IMG/VR virus record: IMGVR_UViG_3300010429_001521
Coordinates: 636 to 64,635 of that record
DNA: 64,000 bases
From: a virus
Lineage: Duplodnaviria > Caudoviricetes
Strand: one strand, 5' to 3'
The position numbers were made by a program, and so were the translations under genes. Below, piece after piece: positions 730-24,043 of the stretch. The notes beneath the pieces are model-generated. The model had not been told where the DNA came from. It saw only the letters and a list, made by a program, of their open reading frames with translations, and did no database searches. Position 1 is the stretch's first letter, and each line of letters opens with the position of its first letter.

Positions 730-732
730 AAC

Positions 733-2331
733 TTAACTCCGGCCTCTGATAGTAGGATCGACGTACACCGTGATGGACGGCTCGCCCACACACACCCGCG
801 CCCGCAAATGCCCGATTTCCGCCGGGGTGATACTGGCCGTCGGACTCAGCTTGCCACTCCAGGCGGTGTCTGCTTCATCAAAGGGATCACCCATCGCTTC
901 CATCCAGGAGGTTTTGCCCATCCCCGTAGTCTGATCCGCCGCACTCGCCAACAAGTCTTTCCGGTCATGCACGAGCGTCGCCAGCGGAAACCCCGAGGTG
1001 CCTTGATAGCTGAATTCGCCCCACACTTCATCGTCTTGATAAGCCGTGGTAGAGCCATTCCGCAAAATCTCCAGAGAGGGCGTTATCGCATTCGTACCAG
1101 AGTGATAGCAGTCGATCCAAGGGGAAACGTAGGGCGTGTAATAACTGCAATTCTTTGTAGTAATAATTTTCCAACTACAGCGATTGGTTCCGTCATATTG
1201 CGCGCCGTCGTTGGCATAAATGCCAGTATCCACAATCGTAGAGCCAAAAGCGTCATGGTGTTGCAAGTGATAATGCTGATCCCCACTCGAACAATTAAAC
1301 AACCAGGCTGTGGCGCTACTTTTATTCTCCACCGTTTGCGTAGCTAGAACCGTAACGCCGCTGTAGAGCGAGCAATTTGCAAATATGCAATTTAAAGACT
1401 GTACCGTTTGCGAACTGATTAATACCGGAATGGCGGATAAATCCATCCCTTCAATAGTAATACCCGTACAACGGCAAGACCCAATTAAAGTAACGGGGGC
1501 AGTTCCATTGTTTATCCACAATCCGCCTTCCACTCTCACGGTCCCGCTGAAATTCCATCTACATGAGGAGTCTTGAGTACTAAATGTACAATTTTTAGCA
1601 TAAGTATAGGAATTTGTAGTAGCGCCAGCGTCAGAAAAATTGATAAAAGGAGCATCTCCAGTAGATTCTTGCAAAAAATAACAATTCTCGACTTCAAAGT
1701 GTCCACCATCACTGGCATTGATAGTAATTCTTCCTGACGCGGCTGCCGACCCAGAGCAACGAAACGTCAATCCGTACATATACACCTTATACGCGCCTAA
1801 TACAGTAATATCATAATCACCATTCCCGCTATCCCCTATGAACGCGCTAGTCCCCATAGTTCCCAGGGTTTGAGGAGGATAATTTGTGGTATCGTTGGTA
1901 CAAATCACGGAAACATTATTTAGAAAAGGGTAGACCGTATCCGCAGTTATCGCGTCCGTCAATCCTTTGTCAACATAAATAATATCACCGCTCGCAGTAG
2001 CGGCATACAACGCATACCTGAAATAGAGCGTAGCGAACAACCAACTGGCCGTCGTCCCTGAGGAATACCCCGGATTGCGACAAGTGAATGTCGCGGTATT
2101 GCTAACTTCGGTACTGGAATCTGGTGTATAACTAGTGTTCCAGGAAGGGTAATTCGTCGCGTCCGTAGTGCCAGCGATAGTACATTCCCAGACATAGCGT
2201 TTGGCGGTCGCGTGATTTGTCCCGGTATCCGCTAGGTTAGGAACAACCCTGTCCCCTTGAGCGTAGGCAGTGTTTTTAGCGTACTCCGTGACGCCAGAAA
2301 CGCCCGTTCCGGCCAAATAATAATTAGCCAT
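733..2331 (-). CDS. Virion structural/tail-associated protein
   Basis: 532 aa, T/S/G-rich beta character; N-terminal YAKNTAYAQGDRV...YVWECTIAGTT motif like those in phage tail proteins; operon context. Confidence 0.55.
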   Translation of the reverse strand: MANYYLAGTGVSGVTEYAKNTAYAQGDRVVPNLADTGTNHATAKRYVWECTIAGTTDATNYPSWNTSYTPDSSTEVSNTATFTCRNPGYSSGTTASWLFATLYFRYALYAATASGDIIYVDKGLTDAITADTVYPFLNNVSVICTNDTTNYPPQTLGTMGTSAFIGDSGNGDYDITVLGAYKVYMYGLTFRCSGSAAASGRITINASDGGHFEVENCYFLQESTGDAPFINFSDAGATTNSYTYAKNCTFSTQDSSCRWNFSGTVRVEGGLWINNGTAPVTLIGSCRCTGITIEGMDLSAIPVLISSQTVQSLNCIFANCSLYSGVTVLATQTVENKSSATAWLFNCSSGDQHYHLQHHDAFGSTIVDTGIYANDGAQYDGTNRCSWKIITTKNCSYYTPYVSPWIDCYHSGTNAITPSLEILRNGSTTAYQDDEVWGEFSYQGTSGFPLATLVHDRKDLLASAADQTTGMGKTSWMEAMGDPFDEADTAWSGKLSPTASITPAEIGHLRARVCVGEPSITVYVDPTIRGRS

Positions 2332-2549
2332 TATTCAAATCCATCAATCAGCGTGTCGATTTCCGCCTGCGCGAGTTGTGTCTCCAACTCTGTGGCATAG
2401 GCCGTCGCTCGGGCATCCAAATCTGTTCCTGCCGGAACGAAATAAACGCGAGTGTATTTCTGCCCCAAATGATCGGTATGGCGCTCCGTCACGCTCAAAG
2501 AACCATCGGCTTGAGTGCTATACTCCACGACCGACAAGATAATGCTCAT
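2331..2549 (-). CDS. Small hypothetical protein (possible tail assembly factor)
   Basis: 72 aa, coupled to the downstream structural gene. Confidence 0.45.
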   Translation of the reverse strand: MSIILSVVEYSTQADGSLSVTERHTDHLGQKYTRVYFVPAGTDLDARATAYATELETQLAQAEIDTLIDGFE

Positions 2550-2551
2550 TG

Positions 2552-2803
2552 TTATTCCCCTACCGCATTTTTCAGTTCGTAGTATTTCGTCACGTACCCA
2601 TCGAACCGGGAAGCCAGTTCATTGAACTGATTCACCGTAAGCCCGAAGGCACTGCGGATTTGCGTCGGAGTAATCTCTTCACTGTTCAGCAGTGACTTGA
2701 TAAACGCCGCGAACCGCCAGACTTCGTGCTGCGTGGCTCCCGCAAACCGTTCCCGAAAGCGAGCCACTAACTGCGTCTTCGTCGCATGATTTAAAATCAA
2801 CAT
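2552..2803 (-). CDS. Small helical protein, paralogue of 3001..3255
   Basis: LNHATKTQLVARFRERF...Q.RSAFGLT matches LRHATKAQLVQRLRKRF...QLRTAFGMT. Confidence 0.65.
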   Translation of the reverse strand: MLILNHATKTQLVARFRERFAGATQHEVWRFAAFIKSLLNSEEITPTQIRSAFGLTVNQFNELASRFDGYVTKYYELKNAVGE

Positions 2804-2999
2804 AGTATTCTCCTAACAAATCTGGACGATTCAATTTGATCCAATGAAGTAACTCAATGAGATCGACCTCAGTGCAATCACGACCCCCTTCGCTGTTATA
2901 GGCTTTAATAACTAAACGACCATTATCAAGTTCATCCAATTCCACCGAGTCACCTTCAGCGTATTCAGTCACACCTTGCAAAACGATAGGTGTACTCAC
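2679..2999 (-). CDS. Hypothetical phage protein
   Basis: Protein-like N-terminal ~65 aa; 3' part overlaps the next gene out of frame. Confidence 0.45.
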   Translation of the reverse strand: MSTPIVLQGVTEYAEGDSVELDELDNGRLVIKAYNSEGGRDCTEVDLIELLHWIKLNRPDLLGEYYVDFKSCDEDAVSGSLSGTVCGSHAARSLAVRGVYQVTAEQ

Positions 3000-3000
3000 G

Positions 3001-3255
3001 TCATTCCCCCTCGGCGGCTTTCAAGTCCGCCCATTGCTTCGCCCACACCAAGAGTTTATCCGCAAACACACTGAACTGCCCGGCAGTCATCCCAAAGGCG
3101 GTGCGCAACTGCAACGCGGTAAAATCGCCCGCGTCATAATGCGCCTTGAGCATCGCCGCCAGCCGCCAGACTTCTTCCCGAGAAGCCTCCTTAAATCGCT
3201 TACGAAGACGCTGAACCAGTTGTGCTTTGGTCGCGTGTCGCAGATTCAGCGCCAT
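3001..3255 (-). CDS. Small helical protein, paralogue of 2552..2803
   Basis: Clear similarity to 2552..2803; GGAG SD. Confidence 0.65.
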   Translation of the reverse strand: MALNLRHATKAQLVQRLRKRFKEASREEVWRLAAMLKAHYDAGDFTALQLRTAFGMTAGQFSVFADKLLVWAKQWADLKAAEGE

Positions 3256-3268
3256 GGGAGTTCCTCAC

Positions 3269-3460
3269 TTATTCCGTTGTTTCCAACAACGAATAACCCA
3301 CCTGATTCATCTCACTCAAAAACGCAATCAGCTTCTTCTCGATTTCCAGAACGCCGACATATGGCACATCTTCCCAAGTGGTCGTCGAGGACGAAAAAGG
3401 CTTTTCGTTCTCGGTAATCACCAACGAGAACTTCACATCCAAGCGCTTATCGGATTTCAT
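3269..3460 (-). CDS. Hypothetical protein
   Basis: 63 aa, coupled, SD present. Confidence 0.5.
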   Translation of the reverse strand: MKSDKRLDVKFSLVITENEKPFSSSTTTWEDVPYVGVLEIEKKLIAFLSEMNQVGYSLLETTE

Positions 3461-3705
3461 TAAAATTTCTCCTTCTTACTATTTAACACGTTAACTGCCG
3501 TTTCAATCGCCAAATTGAGGATTGCTTGACCTACTACTAATGCAACATTTTTCACTTCACTTAATACTAATATTCGCTTTTCTTCACCACTTAATCCCGT
3601 TTTTTCAGCATCTTCCACTAACAAATAAACACGCTCGTAATTCAACGCACCTACCATCGCCCGTACAATCGTTTGCAATAACTTAATTAACATCTTATTC
3701 ATCAT
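3460..3705 (-). CDS. Holin-like small protein
   Basis: GLSGEEKR...AILNLAIETAV resembles LL-H-type holin pattern; lysis-module position. Confidence 0.4.
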   Translation of the reverse strand: MMNKMLIKLLQTIVRAMVGALNYERVYLLVEDAEKTGLSGEEKRILVLSEVKNVALVVGQAILNLAIETAVNVLNSKKEKF

Positions 3706-3718
3706 ACTATACCCAATA

Positions 3719-3928
3719 TTAAAATAAATAGCTGCATTTCAATCCTCCCGTTTCAAAATAATCAATGATCGTCATTCCAGCCCACTTGTCCCCTGTGATT
3801 TGCGGGAGGGACTTTAAAGCCAGGGATGGACGGCACGGAGTCGCGCACCCAAGTATCTGTGACCCGACGATCATGAGCAACACCCACATTATCAGGATTA
3901 GCGGGTGGCGGATCTGGAACTTTCTCAA
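3719..3928 (-). CDS. Embedded lipoprotein (candidate o-spanin)
   Basis: From TTG at 3928 (or ATG 3889): basic n-region, hydrophobic core, lipobox ILG-C; out of frame inside 3762..4205. Confidence 0.45.
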   Translation of the reverse strand: MRKFQIRHPLILIMWVLLMIVGSQILGCATPCRPSLALKSLPQITGDKWAGMTIIDYFETGGLKCSYLF

Positions 3929-4205
3929 CCACTTCAGATTTTCCCACCAACTCGATAGTTGGAAGAGGTTGATAGCCTGAACCTGGAGGTAATGGAGTTT
4001 GTTGCCGAACAGACTGGTCAAGATCAGTGGAACGTTCACGCACATTCTCCCTAAAGACAAACGCCACGACAGCCGTCACAGCTAAAATGGCGTTAATAAT
4101 GATCTCTCGAAACTCCGGTTCTAGTTTGACACCCACCAAACCCAACAAAGTAAAAATAGCAAGCCAAGTGGTTCGTTCTTTTAATCGATTAATTAACCAG
4201 TTCAT
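3762..4205 (-). CDS. Holin-like membrane protein
   Basis: MNWLINRLKERTTWLAIFTLLGLVGV plus a second hydrophobic helix; near endolysin. Confidence 0.55.
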   Translation of the reverse strand: MNWLINRLKERTTWLAIFTLLGLVGVKLEPEFREIIINAILAVTAVVAFVFRENVRERSTDLDQSVRQQTPLPPGSGYQPLPTIELVGKSEVVEKVPDPPPANPDNVGVAHDRRVTDTWVRDSVPSIPGFKVPPANHRGQVGWNDDH

Positions 4206-7051: not shown

Positions 7052-7810
7052 TCACAAATCAAAATCTTTATTATTTTCTAAATTCCTTTCAGCAAATGCA
7101 CTCACCACAATGGGTGTCAACAACAACACACCATCTCCAGTTACTTTTAACAACCGTCTTGGCATCCCATTGATCAATTCCACTTCCAACTTAAACAAAT
7201 TTGAATACTGTGCATAAGCTCTTAACTCACGAGATAACTGATCTCGATAACAATAACCTTGCTCAATCAAAAAATCTGTTAAATCGCGCTCTTTAACATT
7301 CACACCCGAATCATCTTTCATCAAAGCCAACCAATCACGACGTACCATCGTCGCTTGACCCGTAATAGCTTTAGCTAAATCTGAATATGGTTTATCCAAT
7401 GCCAGAGTCGTTTCTAACTCTTTAGCTTTTTCCAAAGCCAATTGCTTTGCTTCTTCAGACACCACTAACGCTTTCAATGCTGAAAGATATGTTTGTGGCA
7501 CAGCTAATTCCCGTTGAACTTCTTCCAATTCCATCCACCGCTTAATAATCTTCATTCGCAATACTGCGTCATAACCAGATATCAATGTGAGAGTAGTATC
7601 TCTATTTAGCTCATACATTTCACGTTCTTTACCTTGAGCATCAACGTAAGTTATTGATTTACAAAGCCAAACCAAATTTGGATCGGCTGAAAGTTGCTCA
7701 AGCATCTTACGAATATCGCGCATAACATGTGCATGAGACTTACCAGTTAACTCAGCGATTTCACGGGAAGACATGGTAATTACAGTATTCAAAGTCTGCA
7801 AACTATTCAT
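7052..7810 (-). CDS. Rha-family regulator with antirepressor-like C-terminus
   Basis: TMSSREIAELTGKSHAHVMRDIRKML; VPQTYLSALKAL; DKPYSDLA. Confidence 0.85.
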   Translation of the reverse strand: MNSLQTLNTVITMSSREIAELTGKSHAHVMRDIRKMLEQLSADPNLVWLCKSITYVDAQGKEREMYELNRDTTLTLISGYDAVLRMKIIKRWMELEEVQRELAVPQTYLSALKALVVSEEAKQLALEKAKELETTLALDKPYSDLAKAITGQATMVRRDWLALMKDDSGVNVKERDLTDFLIEQGYCYRDQLSRELRAYAQYSNLFKLEVELINGMPRRLLKVTGDGVLLLTPIVVSAFAERNLENNKDFDL

Positions 7811-7890
7811 AGTAAAGCCTCATTAAACTGCGATTAAAATGATATTTGAGTATCATTCATACCTAAAATAAATGATACTCTTTAAATTAA

Positions 7891-8190
7891 TTAAAAATCA
7901 TTATCTTTAATTGTTGCTTCTAATTCTTGCCACTTATCAAGAATCCGTACAAAAGATTTAAAATCATAATTAAATGCCAAAAGTAAAGTTTCACGCTTGG
8001 GCAAATCAAAAAATTCAAAATCTTTTTCATCCAAAGTACCCATGCTTGAAAACTGTTCCGAATTTATGTTTAAATTTTTTAACATTTCTCTAATATCTTT
8101 GTCCACTTGTTTGTAAGACATTTCACAAATATCTGCAATTTCACAAGTATTTAAAATCATTTCATTACTATTCATATTTAAAAACTCCAA
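7891..8190 (-). CDS. Short Rha-like protein (likely start ATG 8175)
   Basis: LNTCEIADICEMSYKQVDKDIREML...LPKRETLLLAFNYD. Confidence 0.6.
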   Translation of the reverse strand: MEFLNMNSNEMILNTCEIADICEMSYKQVDKDIREMLKNLNINSEQFSSMGTLDEKDFEFFDLPKRETLLLAFNYDFKSFVRILDKWQELEATIKDNDF

Positions 8191-8194
8191 ATAA

Positions 8195-8331
8195 AAAAGC
8201 TGTTGTTAATGAGGGTGGAAGAGTCAGAGTAAGTAATGACATTCCTCAAAAACAACAGCCAGTTAATCTTACTTACTCATATACCTTCCACAGTATGTAA
8301 GTAATATATCATACATCCCATTTAAAAGCAA
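8195..8331 (-). promoter_or_regulatory. Promoter plus A-B-A'-B' structured leader of Rha genes
   Basis: TTGCTT-17-TATATT at 8331..8303; two pairs of interleaved complementary segments. Confidence 0.55.
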
Positions 8332-8374
8332 CTCATGTATAATAACTACATTCAACCCCAACGGTAGATTCGTT

Positions 8375-8890
8375 ATGAAAGACTTAACTAAAGTCGAAGT
8401 ATCCATCACCCAATGGATTAAAGATACTGGAGAAGGTCAAATAAAAGGTATTCCAGTTCCTTGTGGAGAGTGTCGAACTTGCTGCTCGCATATCAATGCT
8501 CAACTTTATCCAGAAGAAATTAAATTTTACAAAAACAAATTTTCCAAATCAGACGGTAAGTATCATTTAAAACGCAATTCTAACGACACATGCGTTTATT
8601 TAAATGATCGTGGTTGTTCCATCCATGATCATGTTCCAAAAGTCTGTAAAACTTTTGATTGTCGTTATATGGGATTCTTTAATATTAAGAATCCAAAAAA
8701 TGAAAATCTAACTAAAGCATCCAAACGATGGATTTTCATTAATGACAACAATGAAATCTGGCAACACTTAACTCAATACTTCCGTAACGGTTTAGCTTTA
8801 ATGCCCATTAAATCTGGTGATCGCGTAGATTATTGTGCGAAAGCTGCGTTACTATCTGCCTACAATAAATTCTTCGTTAAAACGGAATAA
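8375..8890 (+). CDS. YkgJ-like CxxCxxCC cysteine-cluster protein
   Basis: CGECRTCC...CVYLNDRGCSIHDHVPKVCKTFDC. Confidence 0.75.
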   Translation: MKDLTKVEVSITQWIKDTGEGQIKGIPVPCGECRTCCSHINAQLYPEEIKFYKNKFSKSDGKYHLKRNSNDTCVYLNDRGCSIHDHVPKVCKTFDCRYMGFFNIKNPKNENLTKASKRWIFINDNNEIWQHLTQYFRNGLALMPIKSGDRVDYCAKAALLSAYNKFFVKTE

Positions 8891-8901
8891 CCACTTGCAG
8901 T

Positions 8902-9801
8902 ATGTTATTGATATATGCTATACTGGAATTACCCACACCACCCCATGAGCTTGCTATGAGCAAAGAATTTGTAACTTTAACTAAACAAGATTTTATAACT
9001 TGGGCTAATCATCACTGGGGACATGATGATTATAGTATTAGTACTCCCGCCCGTGGCACGGAATTAGTACTCTGCCACCGTTATCCCGTTCACGGCTTGG
9101 AATGTCATATTTATACGACCGTTGAAGAATGTGAAGGCATCACTCGTGACAGTGGCGAAGATGCTATACGAGTGATTTTATGGGATCGCTTTGCAGGTAA
9201 GATGTGTTATCAAGAAACTAAAATCTTACGAGTAGAAGGAGATACGACCGTACAAGAGCGACTCACGGCACGGATGTTGAATATGGAAAAAGTAGTAGAT
9301 CTTTTACAACAACAAAATCGTTTTTGTAAATGTGCTCAGAATCGAGTCCATACGGTGAAACGCACTCGACAATCAGATGGTGCAATCTTTTATGGTTGTT
9401 CGATCTTTGGACAATGCAGTAAAGGTGGATTTAATAAAATGGAAAATGCGTTTAAAAATTATCCATTAAAAGACAATCCATTTAAAGATCAAGGTTACAG
9501 TATGTCGGCTGTCACCCCGGAAGTGGAACGAAAAATTGAAACTTTGTCCATTCAACCTCGTGCTGTCGTCCCCAAAAACTCTCACTTCAAACGATGGGAA
9601 GTAGATACTGAACAAGAATTAATACCGACTGAACAATGGCCGTTGATTCGTTATCCATTTAAAGAATTTAATCACGTTCAAACGGTCGTATACAAATCAG
9701 ATGTTTGGAATAAAGATTGTAATTTGATATTGGGAACTGCGACCAGTTCGGGGAAAACGATCTGTGCCGAACTTATAATGGCTCAGATACTTTATAATTA
9801 A
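8902..9801 (+). CDS. N-terminal piece of split SF2 (Ski2/Hel308-like) helicase with Zn finger
   Basis: FYGCSIFGQC zinc finger; FNHVQ Q-motif; LILGTATSSGKTICAELI Walker A, then stop. Confidence 0.75.
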   Translation: MLLIYAILELPTPPHELAMSKEFVTLTKQDFITWANHHWGHDDYSISTPARGTELVLCHRYPVHGLECHIYTTVEECEGITRDSGEDAIRVILWDRFAGKMCYQETKILRVEGDTTVQERLTARMLNMEKVVDLLQQQNRFCKCAQNRVHTVKRTRQSDGAIFYGCSIFGQCSKGGFNKMENAFKNYPLKDNPFKDQGYSMSAVTPEVERKIETLSIQPRAVVPKNSHFKRWEVDTEQELIPTEQWPLIRYPFKEFNHVQTVVYKSDVWNKDCNLILGTATSSGKTICAELIMAQILYN

Positions 9802-9814
9802 TGAGATCAATATT

Positions 9815-10060
9815 ATGATGACTGCACATATATATGAATTTATGACTTCACCCATCTATGAATATGGAGATTTAAAATTCTCCCTGAATCGTTATGATGA
9901 CCAAGGAAAAATTATTGAAAAAGGAATCTATCTACATTTTGATAATGCCATTATACGCATCACTGAAGAGGTCGATTTAGATTTATACGACCAATTTGTT
10001 GAATCATTAGATTACATGTCTAGTGAAATTGAAGATGCTATGAAACAAAGAAACTTATAA
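9815..10060 (+). CDS. Hypothetical acidic protein
   Basis: 81 aa, followed by terminator. Confidence 0.5.
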   Translation: MMTAHIYEFMTSPIYEYGDLKFSLNRYDDQGKIIEKGIYLHFDNAIIRITEEVDLDLYDQFVESLDYMSSEIEDAMKQRNL

Positions 10061-10070
10061 TATTCAATTA

Positions 10071-10096
10071 AAAAGCCCGGTTTGATCCGGGCTTTT
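10071..10096. terminator. Bidirectional terminator
   Basis: AAAAGCCCGG/CCGGGCTTTT between convergent operons. Confidence 0.75.
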
Positions 10097-10104
10097 ACCT
10101 ACCA

Positions 10105-10308
10105 TCAATCCACCAATATCTTAACACCAGATTTATACCGTTTCAAATTCACCGACTTCAAATCTGTGACGGGTACAAAATTTAAATAATCAGTAAAACA
10201 ATTATGGCAATGAGTGTACTTATCATCCTCTTTAGAATCAAAAGATGGATAAACAGCTTCATGAATCCAACCACACTCAATACACTGCATTAAAACTAAA
10301 TCACTCAT
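10105..10308 (-). CDS. Small Zn-finger protein (start MSDLVL)
   Basis: CIECGWIH...CHNC; paralogue of 10301..10579. Confidence 0.55.
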   Translation of the reverse strand: MSDLVLMQCIECGWIHEAVYPSFDSKEDDKYTHCHNCFTDYLNFVPVTDLKSVNLKRYKSGVKILVD

Positions 10309-10579
10309 GAGGTAATAACACCAATTGTAAACGTTGTCCACGTAGTTTGCTAGCTCTTGAATCCTTAAAATCAATAACTTCCATCTGCTTATAACTTTCT
10401 TTACATCGAAAACACGATTGATAATCTTTTAATCGTGCTGGATTGGAATCGTAATAATCTTCTTTTTGTTTTTCAGTAAGCTGAACATACGCCGAATTAA
10501 ATTCACGAATGCTCTCTTCAGCAGATCCTAGTGACACCCCCGTATGTATCCATCCACACTTTTGACATCTAACCAACAT
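10301..10579 (-). CDS. Small Zn-finger protein
   Basis: CQKCGWIH...CFRC; AGGA SD. Confidence 0.6.
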   Translation of the reverse strand: MLVRCQKCGWIHTGVSLGSAEESIREFNSAYVQLTEKQKEDYYDSNPARLKDYQSCFRCKESYKQMEVIDFKDSRASKLRGQRLQLVLLPHE

Positions 10580-10589
10580 TTAAATCCTC

Positions 10590-10796
10590 CTAAGCTACTT
10601 CTGGTGAAGTATTAGTAACCAAACATACCTTTTTTTGTTTTGGCATCAATGGACGTTCCACTTTGACCAATTTCCACCCTAAACAACCTTTTAATTGACA
10701 TGAACACGGCACCGCATCATAACCCGATGCTAAAATTTCATCCCAGGTAAATTCAGAATTTTCTTGCCGTTTGGCAATCCACGCATCTTTAGTCAT
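10590..10796 (-). CDS. Hypothetical protein
   Basis: 68 aa, CSC..GCLGW. Confidence 0.5.
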   Translation of the reverse strand: MTKDAWIAKRQENSEFTWDEILASGYDAVPCSCQLKGCLGWKLVKVERPLMPKQKKVCLVTNTSPEVA

Positions 10797-11091
10797 GATC
10801 TTTAAACTTTCTTTTATACAATTGATTCATTAAATTTTCAAATTCCACACACCATTGAGAATCTTGTCCGGTTAATTCCGAAATTGCAATGTTCTTCCTC
10901 AATACTCCAGAACCCAAGTATAAAACAATGTCCTCTAACTTTTCAATATACTTTTGATCGAATTCAATGCGTTTTGCTGCTTGAACATACCTTTTATAAC
11001 GTTGCTGCTGATCCATATCCGTATCCATCCAACACTCAACAGGCAATCTTAAAACACCTAACAACATCACATCACTCATTATAACCTCCAA
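10789..11091 (-). CDS. Hypothetical protein (likely start ATG 11079)
   Basis: GGAGG SD before MSDVMLLGVLRLP. Confidence 0.55.
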   Translation of the reverse strand: MEVIMSDVMLLGVLRLPVECWMDTDMDQQQRYKRYVQAAKRIEFDQKYIEKLEDIVLYLGSGVLRKNIAISELTGQDSQWCVEFENLMNQLYKRKFKDHD

Positions 11092-11094
11092 TAT

Positions 11095-11130
11095 AAAAAG
11101 TCGCCAATGATATAGCCAATCACTGGCGAC
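11095..11130 (-). terminator. Rho-independent terminator
   Basis: GTCGCCAGTGAT/ATCATTGGCGAC then TTTTT. Confidence 0.75.
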
Positions 11131-11547
11131 CCGTTTGTGATCTTGTCAATCACATGCATGAAAAGATCTTACCGTTATTTCAATAGCGACATTTGTGGTG
11201 TACTTACCAGCATACGCACTCCTCCCGAATAACACTACATCCTTTCAATGGTATTGGGCGAGAAGTGTTGGAGTCGAACCAACTCTTCCACAGTCAATAA
11301 CCCAAGCTCTTTGCATACATCCTTACAACAACGCAAGTAGTGAAACACTAAAAACATAACTAGCATCTTATGTATCCACCCGTCTACCCATTTCCGGCAC
11401 TCGCTTACTGAATATTCAACACTTAAACATTCAGTAAGCGAGAAAGGATTCGAACCTTTAAGTACGTAGCTTACGCCACTCGTACCGTGGTGATGCTGAA
11501 CTCTAACTTTAACAACAACTCAACACTACATTTGAACTATACCTGGA
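11131..11547 (-). ncRNA. Candidate structured RNA with tRNA-like modules
   Basis: T-arm 11459-11443, 14-bp stem 11442-11429/11413-11400, D-arm 11397-11380, second T-arm 11283-11267 followed by CTCGCCCA. Confidence 0.6.
11175..11213 (-). CDS. Possible 12-aa mini-ORF (MLVSTPQMSLLK)
   Basis: GGAGGAG SD just upstream of ATG, inside the structured region. Confidence 0.25.
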   Translation of the reverse strand: MLVSTPQMSLLK

Positions 11548-12315
11548 TCAATGGGGAATTGAACCCGTCATGATAAATTCAATAATCCCCCGACCCACGG
11601 AAACAGGTTGAATTAACACCGTGTTCGCTCTCATTCGCGCTCGTTTAATTTCCACCAACAAAACATCCAAACGCTCTAAACATTGAGCTTTTTGCAACGA
11701 AGTTGCGGCACCTGAAAAATGCTTCGTGGTGAACGTACCCACCACATCATCTTTGGAAACTTCCTTCACCTGCGCTGGATGTTCCTTCGTGGCTTCATAC
11801 AACACCACCGGAGTCACTACCTTTTCCGTTTTCACCGTCACATCGGCCATCGTCGCTTCCCATGCACCATCACTGACTGAAGAAGGTGTCCATGTTTTCG
11901 ATGCATCTAACGTCGGCATCTTTTCAAACACTTTCCGCAAATCCAACAATCGAGCTTCCAAACCCATCAATTCATCCACAGGAAGATTTGACAACAAAAC
12001 TTCACCATTGATTTCAACATCAGCAATGGCAATTTGATTCGTGACATTCTTTGTGCATTGCAAATCTTCCGCTTTCACCCAAAAAGCCAACAAATAATCT
12101 AAAGTCTGCTTCACCGTTGTCACTAATTCTTTCTTTTCACTCCCCGCTAATTCTAGCTGCTCGTTATTCGGGGCATCTTTAAGCATTTTCAAAGTCTTAA
12201 TATGGCCTTTGAAAAAATGATCTTTATCAAATTTCTGCAAAGTTTCCAACTGCAACTTATTCACCTGTGAAGTGAAATTCTTTTCCGTTGCTAACAATTC
12301 ATGTAAGATTTTCAT
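11548..12315 (-). CDS. Coiled-coil-rich phage protein of unknown function
   Basis: 255 aa; VVLYEATKEHPAQVK motif; GGAG SD. Confidence 0.75.
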   Translation of the reverse strand: MKILHELLATEKNFTSQVNKLQLETLQKFDKDHFFKGHIKTLKMLKDAPNNEQLELAGSEKKELVTTVKQTLDYLLAFWVKAEDLQCTKNVTNQIAIADVEINGEVLLSNLPVDELMGLEARLLDLRKVFEKMPTLDASKTWTPSSVSDGAWEATMADVTVKTEKVVTPVVLYEATKEHPAQVKEVSKDDVVGTFTTKHFSGAATSLQKAQCLERLDVLLVEIKRARMRANTVLIQPVSVGRGIIEFIMTGSIPH

Positions 12316-12420
12316 AATGATAACTCCAACAATGGGTTGAGCTTACATTATACCTACATTAAATTATTATAAAACTTTAGACAATACAAGATCTTTGATG
12401 TTTTGGGATGCCCAACTAGA

Positions 12421-13194
12421 TTAATCCTTAAAATTATCATGTAACTTTGCTAAAAGCTCTTCAGTCACTTCAAACGAAAGTTCTTTTCTACTTAAATTTT
12501 TTTGATCGTCAGATCTGTAATCATTTTCATTAAACCAACTTTTTCCTTGATTACAATCTTGACATAACACTTGAAGATTGCTTAAATCAAGTGCTAATTC
12601 TGGATTAAACCGAAGTGGTTTAATATGATCAACGTTTAACACCACAGAGTTATCCGCCGAAGGTGCTGCTCCACAACTCACACAACGTCTTCCATAAGTA
12701 TCCAACGCTATCAATCTTAATTCTTTCCATCTCCACGATTTATAAAACACTTCGGGAATTAAATCAAATGGCTCATCTTTACGACAACGAGATTTATATC
12801 CAACTGGATTTGGTGCAACGTTTGATTTCTTTTCCTTTGGAACATAATCAGATCTTTTAGTTGGACAAGGTAAGGTAGATATTATTTTTCGAGATTGCAC
12901 AACCAATTTTCTTGGATGTGCTCTAGTTTTAACCGCTTCAACTACAACCTCAGATTCATTAGCTATTCTAATAAATTCTTTTTCAAGCATTTTTTGACTA
13001 ACATTTCGTTTTTTACGCACACCACACAAATTATTATCAAATAACAATTTTAATAATTCTTGATAACTCAAAGAATCAGCACAAATTCCAAGCTTGTCCA
13101 AACAAGCAACAGCTTTACGTCTACCAACTCTCATTTCCTGTTTGACAGTCACACATATAACCTCAAAATAAAATTTACACCAACCAACATTCAA
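12421..13194 (-). CDS. HNH endonuclease
   Basis: CVSCG...VDHIKP...NLQVLCQDCNQGK. Confidence 0.85.
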   Translation of the reverse strand: MNVGWCKFYFEVICVTVKQEMRVGRRKAVACLDKLGICADSLSYQELLKLLFDNNLCGVRKKRNVSQKMLEKEFIRIANESEVVVEAVKTRAHPRKLVVQSRKIISTLPCPTKRSDYVPKEKKSNVAPNPVGYKSRCRKDEPFDLIPEVFYKSWRWKELRLIALDTYGRRCVSCGAAPSADNSVVLNVDHIKPLRFNPELALDLSNLQVLCQDCNQGKSWFNENDYRSDDQKNLSRKELSFEVTEELLAKLHDNFKD

Positions 13195-13225
13195 ATATAT
13201 ACCTAATGACTTGCAGCTATTTTAT

Positions 13226-13254
13226 TTGACTATAAAACTGATATATGATAAACT
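13226..13254 (+). promoter_or_regulatory. sigma70 promoter
   Basis: TTGACT-17-TAAACT with extended -10 TG. Confidence 0.7.
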
Positions 13255-13295
13255 AACCACGCTTTAGCAACCCACAATCACCGGATACTACTAAG

Positions 13296-13709
13296 ATGTC
13301 AAATATTTCCATTATCACTGATCATTGGAAACAACAGTTTTCAGAATTTGAAACTCCATATTTTTATGCACACAGTGCTGAAATTTATGCTCAATTTTTA
13401 CCCAAAGAAAAAGTACTAAAAACCACCATCGAAATCTTCGACAATAAAAAGAACGTAGTCATCAAATGTTACACTACATCTTTTGGTATGGAAATGGTGC
13501 AACCTGATTTTGAAGATCAAAATTCCCGATGGACTGAACAAGACTTTTCACCACTCACCCAACCAATCATCTTTAATAAAGATATTGGAGAAATTTATTT
13601 AAATAATTGTGGCACTGAAAATTGGTATGAGATCATTATTTATCCTATTGAAACTTACGATGATAAGATCGCTACAATTTGCGTCAAAACCTTTAATTAC
13701 AGCATTTAA
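13296..13709 (+). CDS. Hypothetical protein
   Basis: 137 aa ORF in + operon. Confidence 0.55.
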   Translation: MSNISIITDHWKQQFSEFETPYFYAHSAEIYAQFLPKEKVLKTTIEIFDNKKNVVIKCYTTSFGMEMVQPDFEDQNSRWTEQDFSPLTQPIIFNKDIGEIYLNNCGTENWYEIIIYPIETYDDKIATICVKTFNYSI

Positions 13710-13720
13710 AAGATTTAATC

Positions 13721-14029
13721 ATGATCACCATTATTAAAGATATGAGTAAAAATTTAAGAGAATATCTAACTACATGCAAATATTGTGGCAGTGTTTTTAA
13801 ACATGATGAAACAGACTTGATAAAAGATTTACCAAAAAACTCAAACATCGAAGTTATTGATTGTCCAATCTGTAAAAAAAGAATTGATGCTCAACGCATC
13901 ACATCTTTAAAAGATGTACCAAAACCTCCACCTCCACCTCCACGACCATTAAAACCAAAAAATGCTATTTATGAACTCATCAGCGATTACATCATCATCG
14001 CTAAAAAGAATTTTAAATTCAAACTATAA
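13721..14029 (+). CDS. Zn-ribbon protein with polyproline tract
   Basis: CKYCG...CPICK; PKPPPPPPRP. Confidence 0.55.
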   Translation: MITIIKDMSKNLREYLTTCKYCGSVFKHDETDLIKDLPKNSNIEVIDCPICKKRIDAQRITSLKDVPKPPPPPPRPLKPKNAIYELISDYIIIAKKNFKFKL

Positions 14030-14040
14030 AAGATAAAACT

Positions 14041-14367
14041 ATGACTACTATTCGTGACTGGCTCACTGAAATGCACTTTGATTTTTCATCAGGTGTTATA
14101 ATCTTCCAATCTGTTAAAGATAACCAAGCACCTGGATGGTATGACCCCATCAGCAGTGAAGTCATTAACGAAAACCATCCTGTTCTTAATCAAGAATTTA
14201 ACAGTGGTTTCGGCAGTCCTTCATGTCCCCGCTTCATTGCAAAAGATAATGAAGCTGTTTACTTTCCATACCAATATGACGGTTCAACCAATATTCAAAA
14301 AATATGGTTAGATATTAATAATTATTTGGATTTTACCCATTATTACACTCCATATCCCGGTGGTTAA
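14041..14367 (+). CDS. Hypothetical phage protein
   Basis: 108 aa; YQYDGS, YPGG end. Confidence 0.6.
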   Translation: MTTIRDWLTEMHFDFSSGVIIFQSVKDNQAPGWYDPISSEVINENHPVLNQEFNSGFGSPSCPRFIAKDNEAVYFPYQYDGSTNIQKIWLDINNYLDFTHYYTPYPGG

Positions 14368-14385
14368 ACTGGACTAACAAAGACT

Positions 14386-14592
14386 ATGAAAATTAAATTA
14401 ACTGATACTGAAAAACAACGTTTTTGTCAATGGGTGATAGAGAACATTGATGAAAGGATTGTTCCCAATGATGAGGGTTTAAGTATTGGAATAGTATTTA
14501 ACTTAGTCCATGCAATCCGTGGAGATAACGAACTTTATGATTATCATGAAGAACAAGACAACGAAATCACATTCTGGTATCTTAACCAATAA
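14386..14592 (+). CDS. Hypothetical protein
   Basis: 68 aa. Confidence 0.45.
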   Translation: MKIKLTDTEKQRFCQWVIENIDERIVPNDEGLSIGIVFNLVHAIRGDNELYDYHEEQDNEITFWYLNQ

Positions 14593-14619
14593 ATTTACCA
14601 AACACATAAAGGAATAAAT

Positions 14620-16410
14620 ATGGCAAAGATTTTGTACTCCGCACCTTTGAAAGCGCTCTCCAATGAAAAATATGAAGATTGGACTAAACTTTTTCCTGAC
14701 AAAAAGATTTTACAACTGACTGGGGATACACTCACCAGTCAAAAAATTCGCATGGAGATGATGAAAGCAGCGGAAACCGCAGATATTTTAATTATGACTG
14801 CGGAACTCTTGGATAGCGTGACCCGGAATCATTACAGTGAACACTATCAATGGGTCAAACACGTCCAATTACTGGTGGTCGATGAAGCCCACGGTGTAAC
14901 AATGGTGGGAAGAGGACACGTTATTGAAGCATCCATCATGCGTTTTTGTGAGATTGCTCCACAAGCCAAAGTGTGGTTTATGTCCGCCACCATGCCCAAC
15001 TGTGAAGAATTTGCACAATGGCTGACTACACTCAATCACAAACCTTCGGAAATTATTAACTCCACATGGAGACCTACTGAACTTCGCTGGAACTTTATTC
15101 CCCATAACGCCTTCGGTTCATATTGGGAAAACCAAGATGATAAAATTCGTAAAGCGGTCGAAATTGTTGAAGAGCATCAAAATGAATCCACATTGGTCTT
15201 CGTACACGATAAAAACACGGGACGAAGAATTGATGCTGTACTGAAAGATTTAGGTATTGCTTGTGAATTTTATAACGCTGATCTTGAAACTGAAGTTCGT
15301 CACGACTTATTAAAAAGATTTGAAAGCGATGACAGTAACAGAATTGCTGCACTTATCACAACTTCGAGCCTCTCATGGGGCGTAAATACCTCCGCACAAA
15401 ATGCCGTAATTGTTGGAGTCCATCGTGGAATTGAACCCGTTGATGAGTTGGACATCTTACAAGCGGCTGGCCGTGCTGGAAGATTTGGTAAAGCACCTTA
15501 TGGTAATGTGTATTTAATTTGTGACAATATCAGTGAATGGAAGAACAAAGTCTCCAATCCCCGGAATGTGACCTCCACCTTATTGGACACATATGCACTG
15601 GCTTTTCATTTGTGTGCGGAAATTAAAAATAAAGTCATTAAAGATTATGATACGATGTATACATGGTATCACCGTACCTTAGCCAGTATCCAGAGTCCAC
15701 TGGAAAAACAGCACGTCGATGAGGTGTTGACCGCACTCCAAAACTGGAAAGCAGTCGTCATTAATCCCGATGACACCTTTAGTATCACCGCTTTGGGAAC
15801 CGTCGCCGCCACTTTATACTTCCATCCCGAAGATGTTCATCATTGGTGGCAGTGCTTTTCCCATATTGAACGGCAAGGTTTGTGGAAAAATGATCTGTGT
15901 ATTGCATACGCACTATCCGCACCTTCCATGCAACTCCCTTACATTCCCCGAAGTGAAGAGCCGACTGTTCAAACTTATTTTAATGCTCTTCGTCAAGTGT
16001 GGAGAAATGGCCCACATTTAAAACAATCCACCCTCAGTCGAGATGTGCATGATTTATTGTGTGGAGATAAAGCGACTCCACAATCCAGACCTTTACAAAG
16101 CGATGCGGAAAGAATTGTTGGAGCGATCTCATGGATTATGGGGATTGCTAAAATGGGACTGCCCGATATGTTAAAAATACTCCCTACTCGACTCAAATAC
16201 GGAGTAAGTGCAGAGTTGTGTGCTTTAGTCCAACTTCCCGGCATTGGGGGTGTCAGAGCTAAAAAACTTGCAGCTATGGGAATCACGACTTGGGCAGATG
16301 TTATTCGTAATCCTGATAAAATTCAACGAGTCATCGGTGAAAAAAATGTCAAAAAAGTGGTGGACAGTGCAAGAAATTTATTAAGAGTTCATGCTACTGA
16401 ATCGGAGTAA
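14620..16410 (+). CDS. C-terminal piece of split SF2 (Ski2/Hel308-like) helicase
   Basis: Starts at motif Ia YSAPLKALSNE; DEAH, MSAT, TTSSLSWGVN, QAAGRAGR, C-terminal HhH (LPGIGGVRA); no Walker A; AAGGA SD. Confidence 0.85.
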   Translation: MAKILYSAPLKALSNEKYEDWTKLFPDKKILQLTGDTLTSQKIRMEMMKAAETADILIMTAELLDSVTRNHYSEHYQWVKHVQLLVVDEAHGVTMVGRGHVIEASIMRFCEIAPQAKVWFMSATMPNCEEFAQWLTTLNHKPSEIINSTWRPTELRWNFIPHNAFGSYWENQDDKIRKAVEIVEEHQNESTLVFVHDKNTGRRIDAVLKDLGIACEFYNADLETEVRHDLLKRFESDDSNRIAALITTSSLSWGVNTSAQNAVIVGVHRGIEPVDELDILQAAGRAGRFGKAPYGNVYLICDNISEWKNKVSNPRNVTSTLLDTYALAFHLCAEIKNKVIKDYDTMYTWYHRTLASIQSPLEKQHVDEVLTALQNWKAVVINPDDTFSITALGTVAATLYFHPEDVHHWWQCFSHIERQGLWKNDLCIAYALSAPSMQLPYIPRSEEPTVQTYFNALRQVWRNGPHLKQSTLSRDVHDLLCGDKATPQSRPLQSDAERIVGAISWIMGIAKMGLPDMLKILPTRLKYGVSAELCALVQLPGIGGVRAKKLAAMGITTWADVIRNPDKIQRVIGEKNVKKVVDSARNLLRVHATESE

Positions 16411-16416
16411 TGTTTC

Positions 16417-16671
16417 ATGTCAAACAAAATCAAAGAAAAATTGATACCTATCGAAGAGATTGAACTTAAGTTCTTTCGTTATCGTGACAAGGATAGCTTA
16501 CCCACTTGTGCTTTATCTTTTCCTGAAAATCAAGTGTGCACCTTTCTTGGATTCAAATGTTTCGGTACAAAACCCCATTGTATGTATTCAATGAAACCCA
16601 TCTACCGCGAAGAGTCTGGATTTTTAATTCCACTGACTGAATGTCCTTTATGGAATAATACCCAATCTTAA
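16417..16671 (+). CDS. Cys-rich hypothetical protein
   Basis: 84 aa with several Cys. Confidence 0.5.
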   Translation: MSNKIKEKLIPIEEIELKFFRYRDKDSLPTCALSFPENQVCTFLGFKCFGTKPHCMYSMKPIYREESGFLIPLTECPLWNNTQS

Positions 16672-16680
16672 AAGGAGTTT

Positions 16681-17259
16681 ATGGTGGAATTCACCCCCGA
16701 AATGGATGCCCGGATTGTGGAATTGTATACTGAACCTTTAATAAGGGGTTCCATTGCAGCCCAAGCCAGAGTTTGGAAATGCAAAGGTAATCAAATTAAT
16801 TACCGTGCGAACCAACTGCAACTGATCCCCACTTCACGTAAAAAGAACAGTCAACGATGGACCACCAAAGAAATTGAATTACTACGCAGCATGGCGCATT
16901 TAACTCATAAAAAGATCAGTTCCCTATTTTCGGATATGGGTTATCAACGCACCCCCGACGCTATTGAAACCTTCCGAATTCGTGACGGTTGGAGAGCGCG
17001 AATTGAACACAACGAAATAGCTGTGGGGTATACTGCAAAAGGTCTTGCGGAGATTATGGGGGTTGATCCAAAGACCATTCAACGCTGGATTCGATTAAAA
17101 TATCTTAAAGCCCAATCTGAAGGTGGAGATATTCGTATTGGGTTTTATCGCATCAAACCCAAAGCCATTCAAAGATTCTTAACAAACTATATCCATTATG
17201 TCGATCTAACAAAGATCGACAAATATTGGCTTATCGACATCTTGACATCGAGGTATTAA
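16681..17259 (+). CDS. HTH DNA-binding protein
   Basis: YTAKGLAEIMGVDPKTIQRWIRLKYLKA (MerR/Xis-like HTH); WTTKEIELL Myb-like motif. Confidence 0.65.
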   Translation: MVEFTPEMDARIVELYTEPLIRGSIAAQARVWKCKGNQINYRANQLQLIPTSRKKNSQRWTTKEIELLRSMAHLTHKKISSLFSDMGYQRTPDAIETFRIRDGWRARIEHNEIAVGYTAKGLAEIMGVDPKTIQRWIRLKYLKAQSEGGDIRIGFYRIKPKAIQRFLTNYIHYVDLTKIDKYWLIDILTSRY

Positions 17260-17263
17260 ACTT

Positions 17264-17575
17264 ATGTTTAAATACATCATTATTTACCTGGGTATTATCA
17301 TCATCACACATGGAGTTTATAACTCCGACAATAAGACTTTAATAAAAGTTTACTTTTGGACATCCGTTGTGGGTATCAGCTTTTTGTATTTTATGGACAG
17401 TATTCATGCACTCTTCCTTTTTTGTTCAACAATGATACTTTTCAATCTTCATCAAGAAACTTTGGAAGATATACAACGACGTGAACAAGAAGAAACCGCT
17501 AGAAGATTGGAATACGAAATTCGTGAAAGTAAAAAAGCACTGGAAAATTGGAGATCGACTCCTGATCATTTTTAA
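17264..17575 (+). CDS. Membrane protein
   Basis: Hydrophobic N-half, coiled-coil C-half. Confidence 0.5.
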   Translation: MFKYIIIYLGIIIITHGVYNSDNKTLIKVYFWTSVVGISFLYFMDSIHALFLFCSTMILFNLHQETLEDIQRREQEETARRLEYEIRESKKALENWRSTPDHF

Positions 17576-22732: not shown

Positions 22733-24043
22733 ATGCAACTCAATACCAAAGCTAAATGTACCACCTTCACTCATGAAGGTGCGCCCGCTATTCCGTTGAC
22801 TCCCATTAAAGAACTACGCCGTGCTGTATTGGCATGTTTGTTGTGGGAAGATCAGTTTTATGAATCCGGTCAAGATATTGGAACTCGTATTAAAGAGTTA
22901 GTGGTCAAATGCAAACCGGAAGATGTATCCGCTTTAGCGATTGAATCTCGAACTCAGTACCGTATTCGTCATGCTTCATTGTTATTAGCACGAGAGTTGT
23001 GTCGTCATCCCAAAGCATCGGGACGTTTGGTGGGCGATACAATCTTTAATGTCGTACAACGTGCGGATGAATTGGCTGAATTTTTGTCACTGTACTGGTC
23101 TGATAAAAAACAACCGTTATCCAAACAGGTGAAATACGGATTGCAACGAGCATTCCATCGATTTGATGAGTACGCTCTGGCAAAATATAATCGTGATAAA
23201 AGCATCAAACTCTTGGATGTCATGCGATTAGTCCATCCCAAACCCGCGAATGAAATTCAATCAGCATTATGGAAACGTCTCCGTGATGGGGAATTGAAAA
23301 CTCCCGATACATGGGAAGTGGCATTATCCGCCGGGGTAGATAAGAAGGAAACATTCACTCGACTGATTGAAGAGAAGAAATTGGGTTACTTAGCGTTGTT
23401 ACGTAATCTACGTAATATGCTACAAGCCAACGTAGATGTTGACTTAATTAAGAATACACTAATATCTGGTGCTAAGTTCTCTAAAGCTCTTCCGTTTCGA
23501 TTCATTGCTGCGGCACGACATGCCGTGTCATTGGAAAAGACTTTAGATAAAGCGATGCAATTGTCAGTCAGTATGCTGCCCAAATTACCGGGTAAGACCA
23601 TTGTATTGGTAGATGTCAGTGGATCGATGGTGGGAACTAAAATTTCCCAAAAATCCGAGTTAGATCGTTTGGATGCTGCGGCTGGATTGGCAATCTTAGT
23701 GAATTCATTGGCTGAAGAATGTGTTGTATATACATTTTCCAGTGATGTCATTCGGATGCCCCCACGCCAAGGCATGGCATTACGTGATGCGATTTGTGCC
23801 ACTCATCACGGTAACACACTGTTAGGTCGTGCTATTGAAACGATGAATAAAGAGTCATATGATCGTTTGATTGTGATTACTGATGAACAATCACAGGATG
23901 TTGTATCCTCACCCAAGAGTTTAGGGTATATGGTCAATGTCGCTTCATACCAAAACAGTGTGGGATATGGCTCATGGATTCGTTTAACGGGATTTTCAGA
24001 AGCTCTGGTTCAGTGGATTCAAGCATCTGAATCTTTAACTTGA
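22733..24043 (+). CDS. rsr: Ro60/Rsr-like TROVE + vWA RNA-binding protein
   Basis: THEGAPA, LLWEDQFYE, EYALAKY, DVMRLVHPKP, TPDTWEVALS, ALLRNLRNM, LPFRF; vWA DVSGSM and ITDEQ. Confidence 0.92.
   Translation: MQLNTKAKCTTFTHEGAPAIPLTPIKELRRAVLACLLWEDQFYESGQDIGTRIKELVVKCKPEDVSALAIESRTQYRIRHASLLLARELCRHPKASGRLVGDTIFNVVQRADELAEFLSLYWSDKKQPLSKQVKYGLQRAFHRFDEYALAKYNRDKSIKLLDVMRLVHPKPANEIQSALWKRLRDGELKTPDTWEVALSAGVDKKETFTRLIEEKKLGYLALLRNLRNMLQANVDVDLIKNTLISGAKFSKALPFRFIAAARHAVSLEKTLDKAMQLSVSMLPKLPGKTIVLVDVSGSMVGTKISQKSELDRLDAAAGLAILVNSLAEECVVYTFSSDVIRMPPRQGMALRDAICATHHGNTLLGRAIETMNKESYDRLIVITDEQSQDVVSSPKSLGYMVNVASYQNSVGYGSWIRLTGFSEALVQWIQASESLT

Follow-up and report, generated by a model that had tools for sequence, protein, structure and literature searches.

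In phage Aeh1 the nrdA gene is split by the HNH endonuclease gene mobE, in the order NrdA-a / MobE / NrdA-b, and the pieces reassemble into an active enzyme; comparable cases are the topoisomerase genes 39/60 of T4, with mobA, and gene 43 of Aeromonas phages, likewise split (PMC2988022). A second type of gene in pieces, the so-called "fractured genes", combines split inteins with an endonuclease gene that stands on its own between the two halves (Dassa et al., 2009, PMC2677866). Here we describe a superfamily 2 (SF2) DNA helicase of the Ski2-like/Hel308 (Hjm) type, whose conserved motifs are divided between two open reading frames (ORFs) of the IMG/VR virus record IMGVR_UViG_3300010429_001521 (Duplodnaviria; Caudoviricetes). 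The stretch analysed, 64,000 nucleotides corresponding to positions 636 to 64,635 of that record, is referred to as the window, the upstream ORF, which carries the P-loop, as the N-half, and the downstream ORF as the C-half. No description of a split Hel308-type phage helicase was found in the literature.

The locus resembles Aeh1 nrdA in that an essential gene of nucleic-acid metabolism is cut in its catalytic domain, without intein or intron and with contiguous versions in relatives, the two window ORFs adding up to one such orthologue. It differs from Aeh1 in the host gene, a Hel308-type SF2 helicase, in the position of the cut, which sets Walker A apart from the remainder of its RecA domain, and in the gap, which measures 4.8 kb in the window and has an HNH gene adjoining neither half. 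Moreover, the helicase split is old and widespread, being shared by a clade with 37-96% identity in which one sub-clade has a permuted gene order, and it seemingly arose more than once at one loop. With the fractured genes the locus shares the phage-type DNA-metabolism context, helicases included, the metagenomic source and the presence of endonuclease genes between pieces, and three close relatives of the window helicase (L012-L014) are fractured in this very way at motif V. However, the helicases of PMC2677866 are of the gp41/DnaB type and not of the Hel308 type, and the window break is devoid of intein fragments, so that the product must stay two chains. By analogy, the window split would be an intein-less counterpart of the fractured genes (PMC2677866), with a mechanism as in Aeh1, T4 and gp43 (PMC2988022). 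As to the enzyme itself, archaeal Hel308/Hjm, the lipothrixvirus phrog_6819 helicase and the helicase domain of DNA polymerase theta have the motif set and the five-domain architecture in common with it, but they are single polypeptides lacking the ~230-residue N-terminal accessory/zinc-ribbon region, and sequence identity is only ~24%.

A helicase gene divided next to the P-loop

The split relatives used for comparison come from metagenomic contigs (JGI, ENA and Logan) and comprise 35 N-halves and ~30 C-halves or middle pieces. Both ORFs named in the original prediction, 8902..9801 and 14620..16410, are present. The N-half gene is placed at 8956..9801 on the plus strand (281 aa, counted from the start that the homologues share); the longest ORF runs from 8902, and the ATG at 8956 is the likelier start because all 35 homologues begin with a MSKEF-like sequence. 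The protein is made up of an alpha/beta accessory domain, a four-cysteine zinc ribbon, a linker, the Q motif, strand beta1, Walker A and helix alpha1, in this order, and its C-terminus reads ...FNHVQ...TATSSGKTICAELIMAQILYN. It ends, as predicted, after the Q motif and Walker A. The Q motif FNHVQ (9667..9681, plus strand) has N240 and Q243 invariant and F239 nearly so in the 35 sequences, Walker A or motif I, TATSSGKT (9739..9759, plus strand, read from the DNA), is invariant from T264 through T269 in the same set, and the tandem in-frame stops TAA TGA (9799..9804, plus strand) close the gene 13 codons past GKT.

The C-half gene (14620..16410, plus strand) encodes 596 aa, whose N-terminus reads MAKILYSAPLKAL and which extend from beta2/motif Ia through motifs II-VI to the winged-helix, ratchet and helix-hairpin-helix (HhH) domains. 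It has its own Shine-Dalgarno (SD)-like sequence, AAGGA (14609..14613, plus strand), 6 nt ahead of the ATG, again as predicted. Motif II, DEAH (14881..14892, plus strand; D88, E89 and H91 invariant), and motif VI, QAAGRAGR (15460..15483, plus strand; Q281 and G284-R288 invariant), are strictly kept in the C-half alignment, and across its 14 sequences PLKAL, DEAH, SAT and QxxGRAGR are all invariant. Profile and sequence comparisons place the start of the C-half at the strand before motif Ia, in agreement with the earlier claim: Pfam recognizes Helicase_C and, of DEAD, only profile positions 47-166 of 167; the match to phrog_6819 ("Holliday junction branch migration helicase") covers positions 62-643/645 (E 6e-49); the phmmer alignment to the Hel308 of A. 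fulgidus (9b15) covers residues 70-678 of 699 in three stretches (E 3e-31), and that to Hel308 2p6r likewise begins at residue 70. By these matches, the C-half is without exactly the segment borne by the N-half.

The assignment to the Ski2-like/Hel308 (Hjm) helicases is founded on the Q motif and motif I, both on the N-half, on motifs Ia, II (DExH), III (SAT), V and VI, all on the C-half, and on the winged-helix, ratchet and HhH domains, recognized by phmmer, by Pfam HHH_5 and by the fold of the contiguous relative P0059. The HHH_5 match (C-half residues 536-585, E 1.8e-5) scores 25.6 bits, under the 27-bit cut-off of Pfam. The AlphaFold2 (AF2) model of P0059, with a predicted local distance difference test (pLDDT) score of 82, gives target-normalised template modelling (TM) scores of 0.72-0.73 against 2p6r and 9b15 (0.73 over 694 columns for 2p6r).

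At the junction, the spacing of the motifs is that of an undivided protein. The distance from GKT to P[LK]xL is exactly 21 residues in 15 contiguous relatives of 697-941 aa, and 22 in the 675-aa homologue of LR756511; in the window, 13 residues before the stop and 8 (Met+7) after the start also make 21. When searched against the window record, P0059 aligns to the N-half through its residues 6-266 and to the C-half through 267-844. The intact homologues that the original prediction had called for were found in these 15 contiguous relatives and the LR756511 protein, and they bear out its statement that nothing is missing or duplicated. In the AF2 model of P0059, beta1 (241-246) is followed by the P-loop, alpha1 (252-265), a loop (266-268) and beta2 (269-274), and the break is thus predicted to sit in the three-residue surface loop between alpha1 and beta2 of RecA domain 1. 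A target-site duplication, suggested by the likeness between the N-half tail MAQILYN and the C-half head MAKILYS, was considered and rejected: collapsing the two would leave 10 residues versus 21, and their DNA agrees at just 12/21 positions.

Conservation of the break and co-inheritance of the halves

The same break is found across the relatives. All 35 N-half homologues (270-299 aa, down to 26% identity) stop 11-25 residues past GKT, and in the ~30 C-halves or middle pieces the start lies 1-10 residues ahead of the xIYxAPLKAL strand of motif Ia. Both halves are present on every contig fetched (L004, L006-L009 and L011-L016), and neither shows a frameshift or an internal stop in any relative examined. 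Compared with the closest fetched relative, the IMG/VR contig L004 (identity 81% for the N-half and 92% for the C-half), the ratio of nonsynonymous to synonymous substitution rates (dN/dS) is 0.09 for the N-half, 0.06 for the C-half and 0.04 for the Q/P-loop segment of the N-half alone, with dS ~1. These values, proposed beforehand as a check on both halves, reveal no relaxed selection and point to strong purifying selection on each of them. Maximum-likelihood trees, built by "quick" searches from 54 rows for the C part and 50 rows for the N part, agree with each other, which shows that the halves are inherited together.

The order of the pieces varies among these relatives. The window, L004 and L011 have the N-half, a spacer of 4.4-5.3 kb and the C-half, while L006-L009, whose C-halves are 49-56% identical, carry on a single strand the C-half, one or two small genes and then the N-half.

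Among GenBank phages, a megablast search with positions 8300-16700 gave no match, and in protein-level searches the split was absent from the isolated phages of the GenBank phage collection, the sole tblastn match of the N-half to phages being the Q/P-loop part of the contiguous helicase in LR756511. A scan of representative bacterial genomes gave no instance of the P-loop-site split; the Pseudoalteromonas homologues, on plasmid-like replicons, are uninterrupted at the P-loop/motif Ia loop, that of P. peptidolytica being one 948-aa ORF. In a cultured bacterium, Pseudoalteromonas umbrosa B95 (L021 7830-10831), the helicase is contiguous at the P-loop site; its division comes past motif VI, inside an insert specific to the lineage, and yields neighbouring ORFs of 656 aa and 335 aa with 24 nt between them.

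A probable composite ATP site and its alternatives

We consider it probable (about 0.8) that the two ORFs encode two non-covalently assembling subunits of one Hel308/Hjm-type SF2 DNA helicase. A two-chain helicase with its P-loop supplied in trans was the core of the original prediction, and the conserved break, the selection on both halves, the congruent trees and the permuted gene order all speak for it. The N-subunit (281 aa) would provide the accessory domain with its zinc ribbon, the Q motif, beta1, the Walker A loop and alpha1, and the C-subunit (596 aa) the rest of RecA1 (motifs Ia-III) from beta2 onwards, RecA2 and the winged-helix, ratchet and HhH domains. The ATP site would be composite, with Walker A and the Q motif from the N-chain, and DEAH, SAT and the arginine-rich motif VI from the C-chain, so that ATP binding and hydrolysis would need both chains.

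Strand order in the core of the ASCE (additional strand, catalytic E) fold is 5-1-4-3-2, which makes beta1 an interior strand. For this reason the N-half would have to insert its beta1 into the sheet of the C-half. The AF2 model of the N-half alone (pLDDT 86) does not assign the beta1 residues to a strand, as fits a need for partner strands, and its last ~75 residues are aligned by Foldseek to RecA1 of Brr2 (probability 0.85-0.91, E ~0.5). Such an assembly would be a natural and evolutionarily tested fragment complementation inside a RecA-type motor core, with Walker A and an interior beta-strand on one chain and the other catalytic motifs on its partner. It would also bring SF2 helicases into the short list of "genes in pieces" that lack inteins (nrdA, topoisomerase II and DNA polymerase), and it would mark a permissive split site usable for engineering two-component helicases. 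Four features set the case apart: a cut that falls within the RecA core, the age of the split, its permuted gene order and its apparent recurrence.

Some points weigh against this assignment. The binding of the chains and the activity of the complex, as well as an endonuclease origin of the window's own split, are inferred; the interior position of beta1 means that complementation needs intimate co-folding and could be inefficient; and the window halves are in different transcription units, with an antisense module between them, so that equal expression is not guaranteed. In addition, dS is saturated in the more distant pairs, and the layout expected of an endonuclease insertion is seen directly only in the L015 lineage, not in the clade of the window.

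A further question is whether the split is kept because it is useful. A separately expressed P-loop subunit could serve as a switch by which helicase activity is timed or kept in bounds; the division could shield the gene, blocking endonuclease or intein re-invasion at a hot spot; or it could help to evade the host by hiding the enzyme from a defence that senses the intact protein. The split is old, has outlasted a reversal of gene order and has apparently arisen at this loop independently in two lineages or more, which speaks in favour of these ideas, and we regard usefulness as a tentative and rather doubtful proposal. If the split were regulatory or protective, it would represent a new phage means of controlling a repair enzyme.

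The two halves could instead be functionally independent proteins, the N-half having an accessory/zinc-ribbon role or acting as a P-loop donor or regulator for another partner, and the C-half working as an ATP-independent DNA-binding or annealing protein. The separate transcription units in the window would agree with this, as would the fact that the N-half includes a separate domain of 175 residues, which has a high-confidence model and invariant charged residues. However, this domain is also present in contiguous relatives and thus belongs to the ancestral enzyme, the two halves are always found together and have congruent trees, and the Q motif, Walker A, DEAH, SAT and motif VI are all invariant, which is expected only with a complete ATPase site; we therefore judge independence improbable.

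Simple disruption, in which a mobile cassette inactivated the helicase gene and left two decaying ORFs, is very unlikely. Although the spacer holds an HNH endonuclease gene together with other accessory genes, and DnaB-like and SNF2-like helicases encoded in the window might cover the loss, remnants would not be expected to show dN/dS of 0.06-0.09 at dS ~1, catalytic motifs that stay invariant at identities as low as 26-40% in 35 N-halves and 14 C-halves, the same break across a deep clade with two gene orders, or reading frames free of frameshifts and internal stops in the relatives examined.

The halves might also be joined into one polypeptide by an intron or trans-splicing, a split intein, ribosomal bypass or spacer excision. 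There are precedents: in close relatives a split intein is used at another site of the same gene, motif V, another relative (P0064) has a contiguous intein-like insert at motif II, and phage bypass of short gaps is known from T4 gene 60 (PMC2988022). At the window break, however, the 21-residue spacing leaves no room for intein fragments and no spare residues in comparison with contiguous relatives, neither half has an intein/Hint Pfam domain, and none of the 35 N-half homologues (all within 270-299 aa) has the excess length of an N-intein; the absence of an intein, asserted from the start, is thereby upheld, and a fractured gene with flanking intein fragments was rejected for this break. Rfam introns of group I/II were searched for in 8000-17500 at E<=1 and none was found, apart from a chance AgrB match; at the spacer borders there are only short chance matches instead of direct repeats, and a Pfam scan of the spacer revealed no recombinase gene. 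The N-half, as noted, is closed by tandem stops. Furthermore, the C-half lies upstream of the N-half in L006-L009, an order in which read-through, cis-splicing, bypass or spacer excision cannot restore the reading frame; an intron-interrupted gene was accordingly rejected too, no ribozyme core being found and the halves not being collinear in those relatives. Joining by any of these routes is hence highly improbable. That the contig is chimeric or misassembled, a concern raised by an uncultivated-virus contig ~44% complete, has a negligible probability given the same break in independent JGI, ENA and Logan assemblies from 26% to 96% identity and with differing spacers.

Apparent recurrence and proposed origin of the split

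In the trees, the window-type and permuted-order forms make up one split-only clade (Shimodaira-Hasegawa-like approximate likelihood ratio test support 100 and 96), whose neighbours are the contiguous P0048, P0057 and P0059. The split forms L015, L016, P0065 and P0033-35 nest elsewhere, among contiguous proteins, and the C-half of L015 groups with the contiguous P0072 with support 99. A single clade of all split forms is rejected (log-likelihood difference 136, approximately unbiased test p 1e-6), the group having been defined post hoc and the searches being quick ones. The simplest reading of these trees would be at least two independent fissions at the P-loop/motif Ia loop; one fission followed by re-fusion may be an alternative history.

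The layout of Aeh1 nrdA/mobE, the precedent named in the original prediction, exists exactly in L015 (N-half, homing endonuclease, C-half). There, between an N-half ~26% identical to that of the window and the C-half, the sole insert is a gene for a 235-aa NUMOD3 endonuclease, joined to its neighbours by 5 nt on one side and an overlap on the other; the true start of the L015 C-half is MKILYMSPLK, preceded by a strong SD. A plausible path would begin with a free-standing homing-endonuclease gene invading just downstream of the P-loop codons and splitting the helicase gene, as in the L015-like state, after which the gap would accrete and swap other genes and the halves would change order in one sub-clade.

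The same gene has been entered elsewhere. In the window sub-clade many relatives split the C-half again, into ~355 aa and ~378 aa, and here a split intein lies at motif V: ...AWG plus an intein-like tail of ~100 aa closes the upstream piece, and the downstream piece begins with ~35 aa ending in HN, then CNTSAQ. The window C-half reads GVNTSAQ at motif V and is intein-free. Three-piece helicases of this kind lie at L012 5771-10068 and, in both L013 and L014, at 7712-11143, with Rha/KilA-type or nuclease-like genes between the pieces. In P0064 (758 aa, from a 14.9-kb Logan contig) a contiguous intein-like insert of several hundred residues interrupts motif II (DEAH) and ends in ...VAN, then CVTMEGRGH; judged from its sequence, this appears to be a third invasion site in the helicase gene. 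In the tree, two-piece forms are intermixed with three-piece ones, as is expected of elements that come and go. The contiguous gene, the endonuclease-only insert, the multi-gene spacer, the permuted order, the motif V split intein and the motif II intein thus form a series of states of one gene, in which the steps of endonuclease-driven gene fission become directly comparable.

The spacer between the halves

The window spacer (9805..14608, both strands; 4.8 kb) is a variable multi-gene region of ~12 ORFs, with one plus-strand ORF at 9815-10060, four more within 13296-14592 and, on the minus strand, small Cys-rich ORFs in 10105-11091, a DUF7873 gene and an HNH gene. The DUF7873 gene (11548..12315, minus strand; Pfam PF25283, E 2e-67) is conserved in L004, L011 and L013; its place is usually within the spacer, and in L012 it is outside the halves. 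The free-standing HNH endonuclease gene (12421..13194, minus strand; Pfam HNH E 6e-8, phrog_144 E 5e-19) has an 84%-identical orthologue in L011 and is absent from L004; in L004 and L013 a different HNH gene abuts the downstream piece, lying in L004 (15310-16224) directly upstream of the C-half. Spacer content varies even between close relatives (the window, L004, L011, L012 and L013), and the window spacer is a variable region with HNH as one movable component, not a simple endonuclease insertion. A gene for a CxxCxxCC-domain protein lies directly upstream of the N-half (window 8375-8890), and its homologue (52% identity) is found in L012 at 7945-8496, between the middle and C-terminal helicase pieces; the differing sites are another sign of repeated rearrangement of the region.

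In L016 the halves are 4.3 kb apart with other genes between them. Among the latter (L016 3654-5666) is an NAD-dependent DNA ligase encoded as two abutting genes, one of 453 aa (adenylation, oligonucleotide/oligosaccharide-binding and Zn-finger domains) and one of 216 aa (HhH and BRCT).

The original prediction had also placed a promoter at 13226 upstream of the C-half and terminators between the halves. The promoter is weaker than claimed: the site is a 9/12 consensus match, and such matches are no commoner than in shuffled sequence (25 found versus 32 expected). As for the terminators, only one convincing terminator-like hairpin exists between the halves (11132-11098, minus strand; a 14-bp stem followed by a T run), and terminator counts too are not above those of shuffled sequence. 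The hairpin lies in the non-coding stretch 11095-11547 downstream of the DUF7873 gene; L004 conserves this stretch, in which neither a tRNA nor a known RNA was recognized by ARAGORN and Rfam.

The accessory region of the N-half

The accessory domain (N-half residues 1-175, window 8956-9480) has a high-confidence model and carries the invariant charged residues E37, R65, D70, R73, R93 and R103. Foldseek gave no match of the N-half model to the PDB at E<=0.001, and the VIA wide structural search of the N-terminal domain gave a best Z of 6.2 (DR_1245, type III chaperone/YbjN-like alpha+beta folds), which is under the noise guide of the tool and leaves the domain with no convincing structural neighbour. 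In the scan of representative genomes, whose only other matches were the Pseudoalteromonas homologues, a Caldithrix metagenome-assembled genome gave a match limited to the N-terminal domain. The topoisomerase-I-type zinc ribbon (9325..9417, plus strand) has C125, C127, C149 and C155 nearly invariant in the N-half alignment. The window N-half protein itself has no Pfam match at E<=0.01, and several of its homologues have precomputed PF01396 matches.

Other features of the window

The window belongs to an uncultivated-virus contig of 64.6 kb, estimated by CheckV as ~44% complete, with a GC content of ~35%. In positions 1-4000 GC rises to 48-53%, against ~35% elsewhere in the window; two large minus-strand ORFs (1-729 and 733-2331) lack a Pfam match. 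Besides the split helicase, the replication and recombination genes aboard the window are those for PolA, a DnaB-like helicase, an SNF2-like helicase, RecA and TROVE/Ro60, the last being a phage-encoded TROVE/Ro60-vWA gene at 22733-24043 (Pfam TROVE E 4.5e-16).

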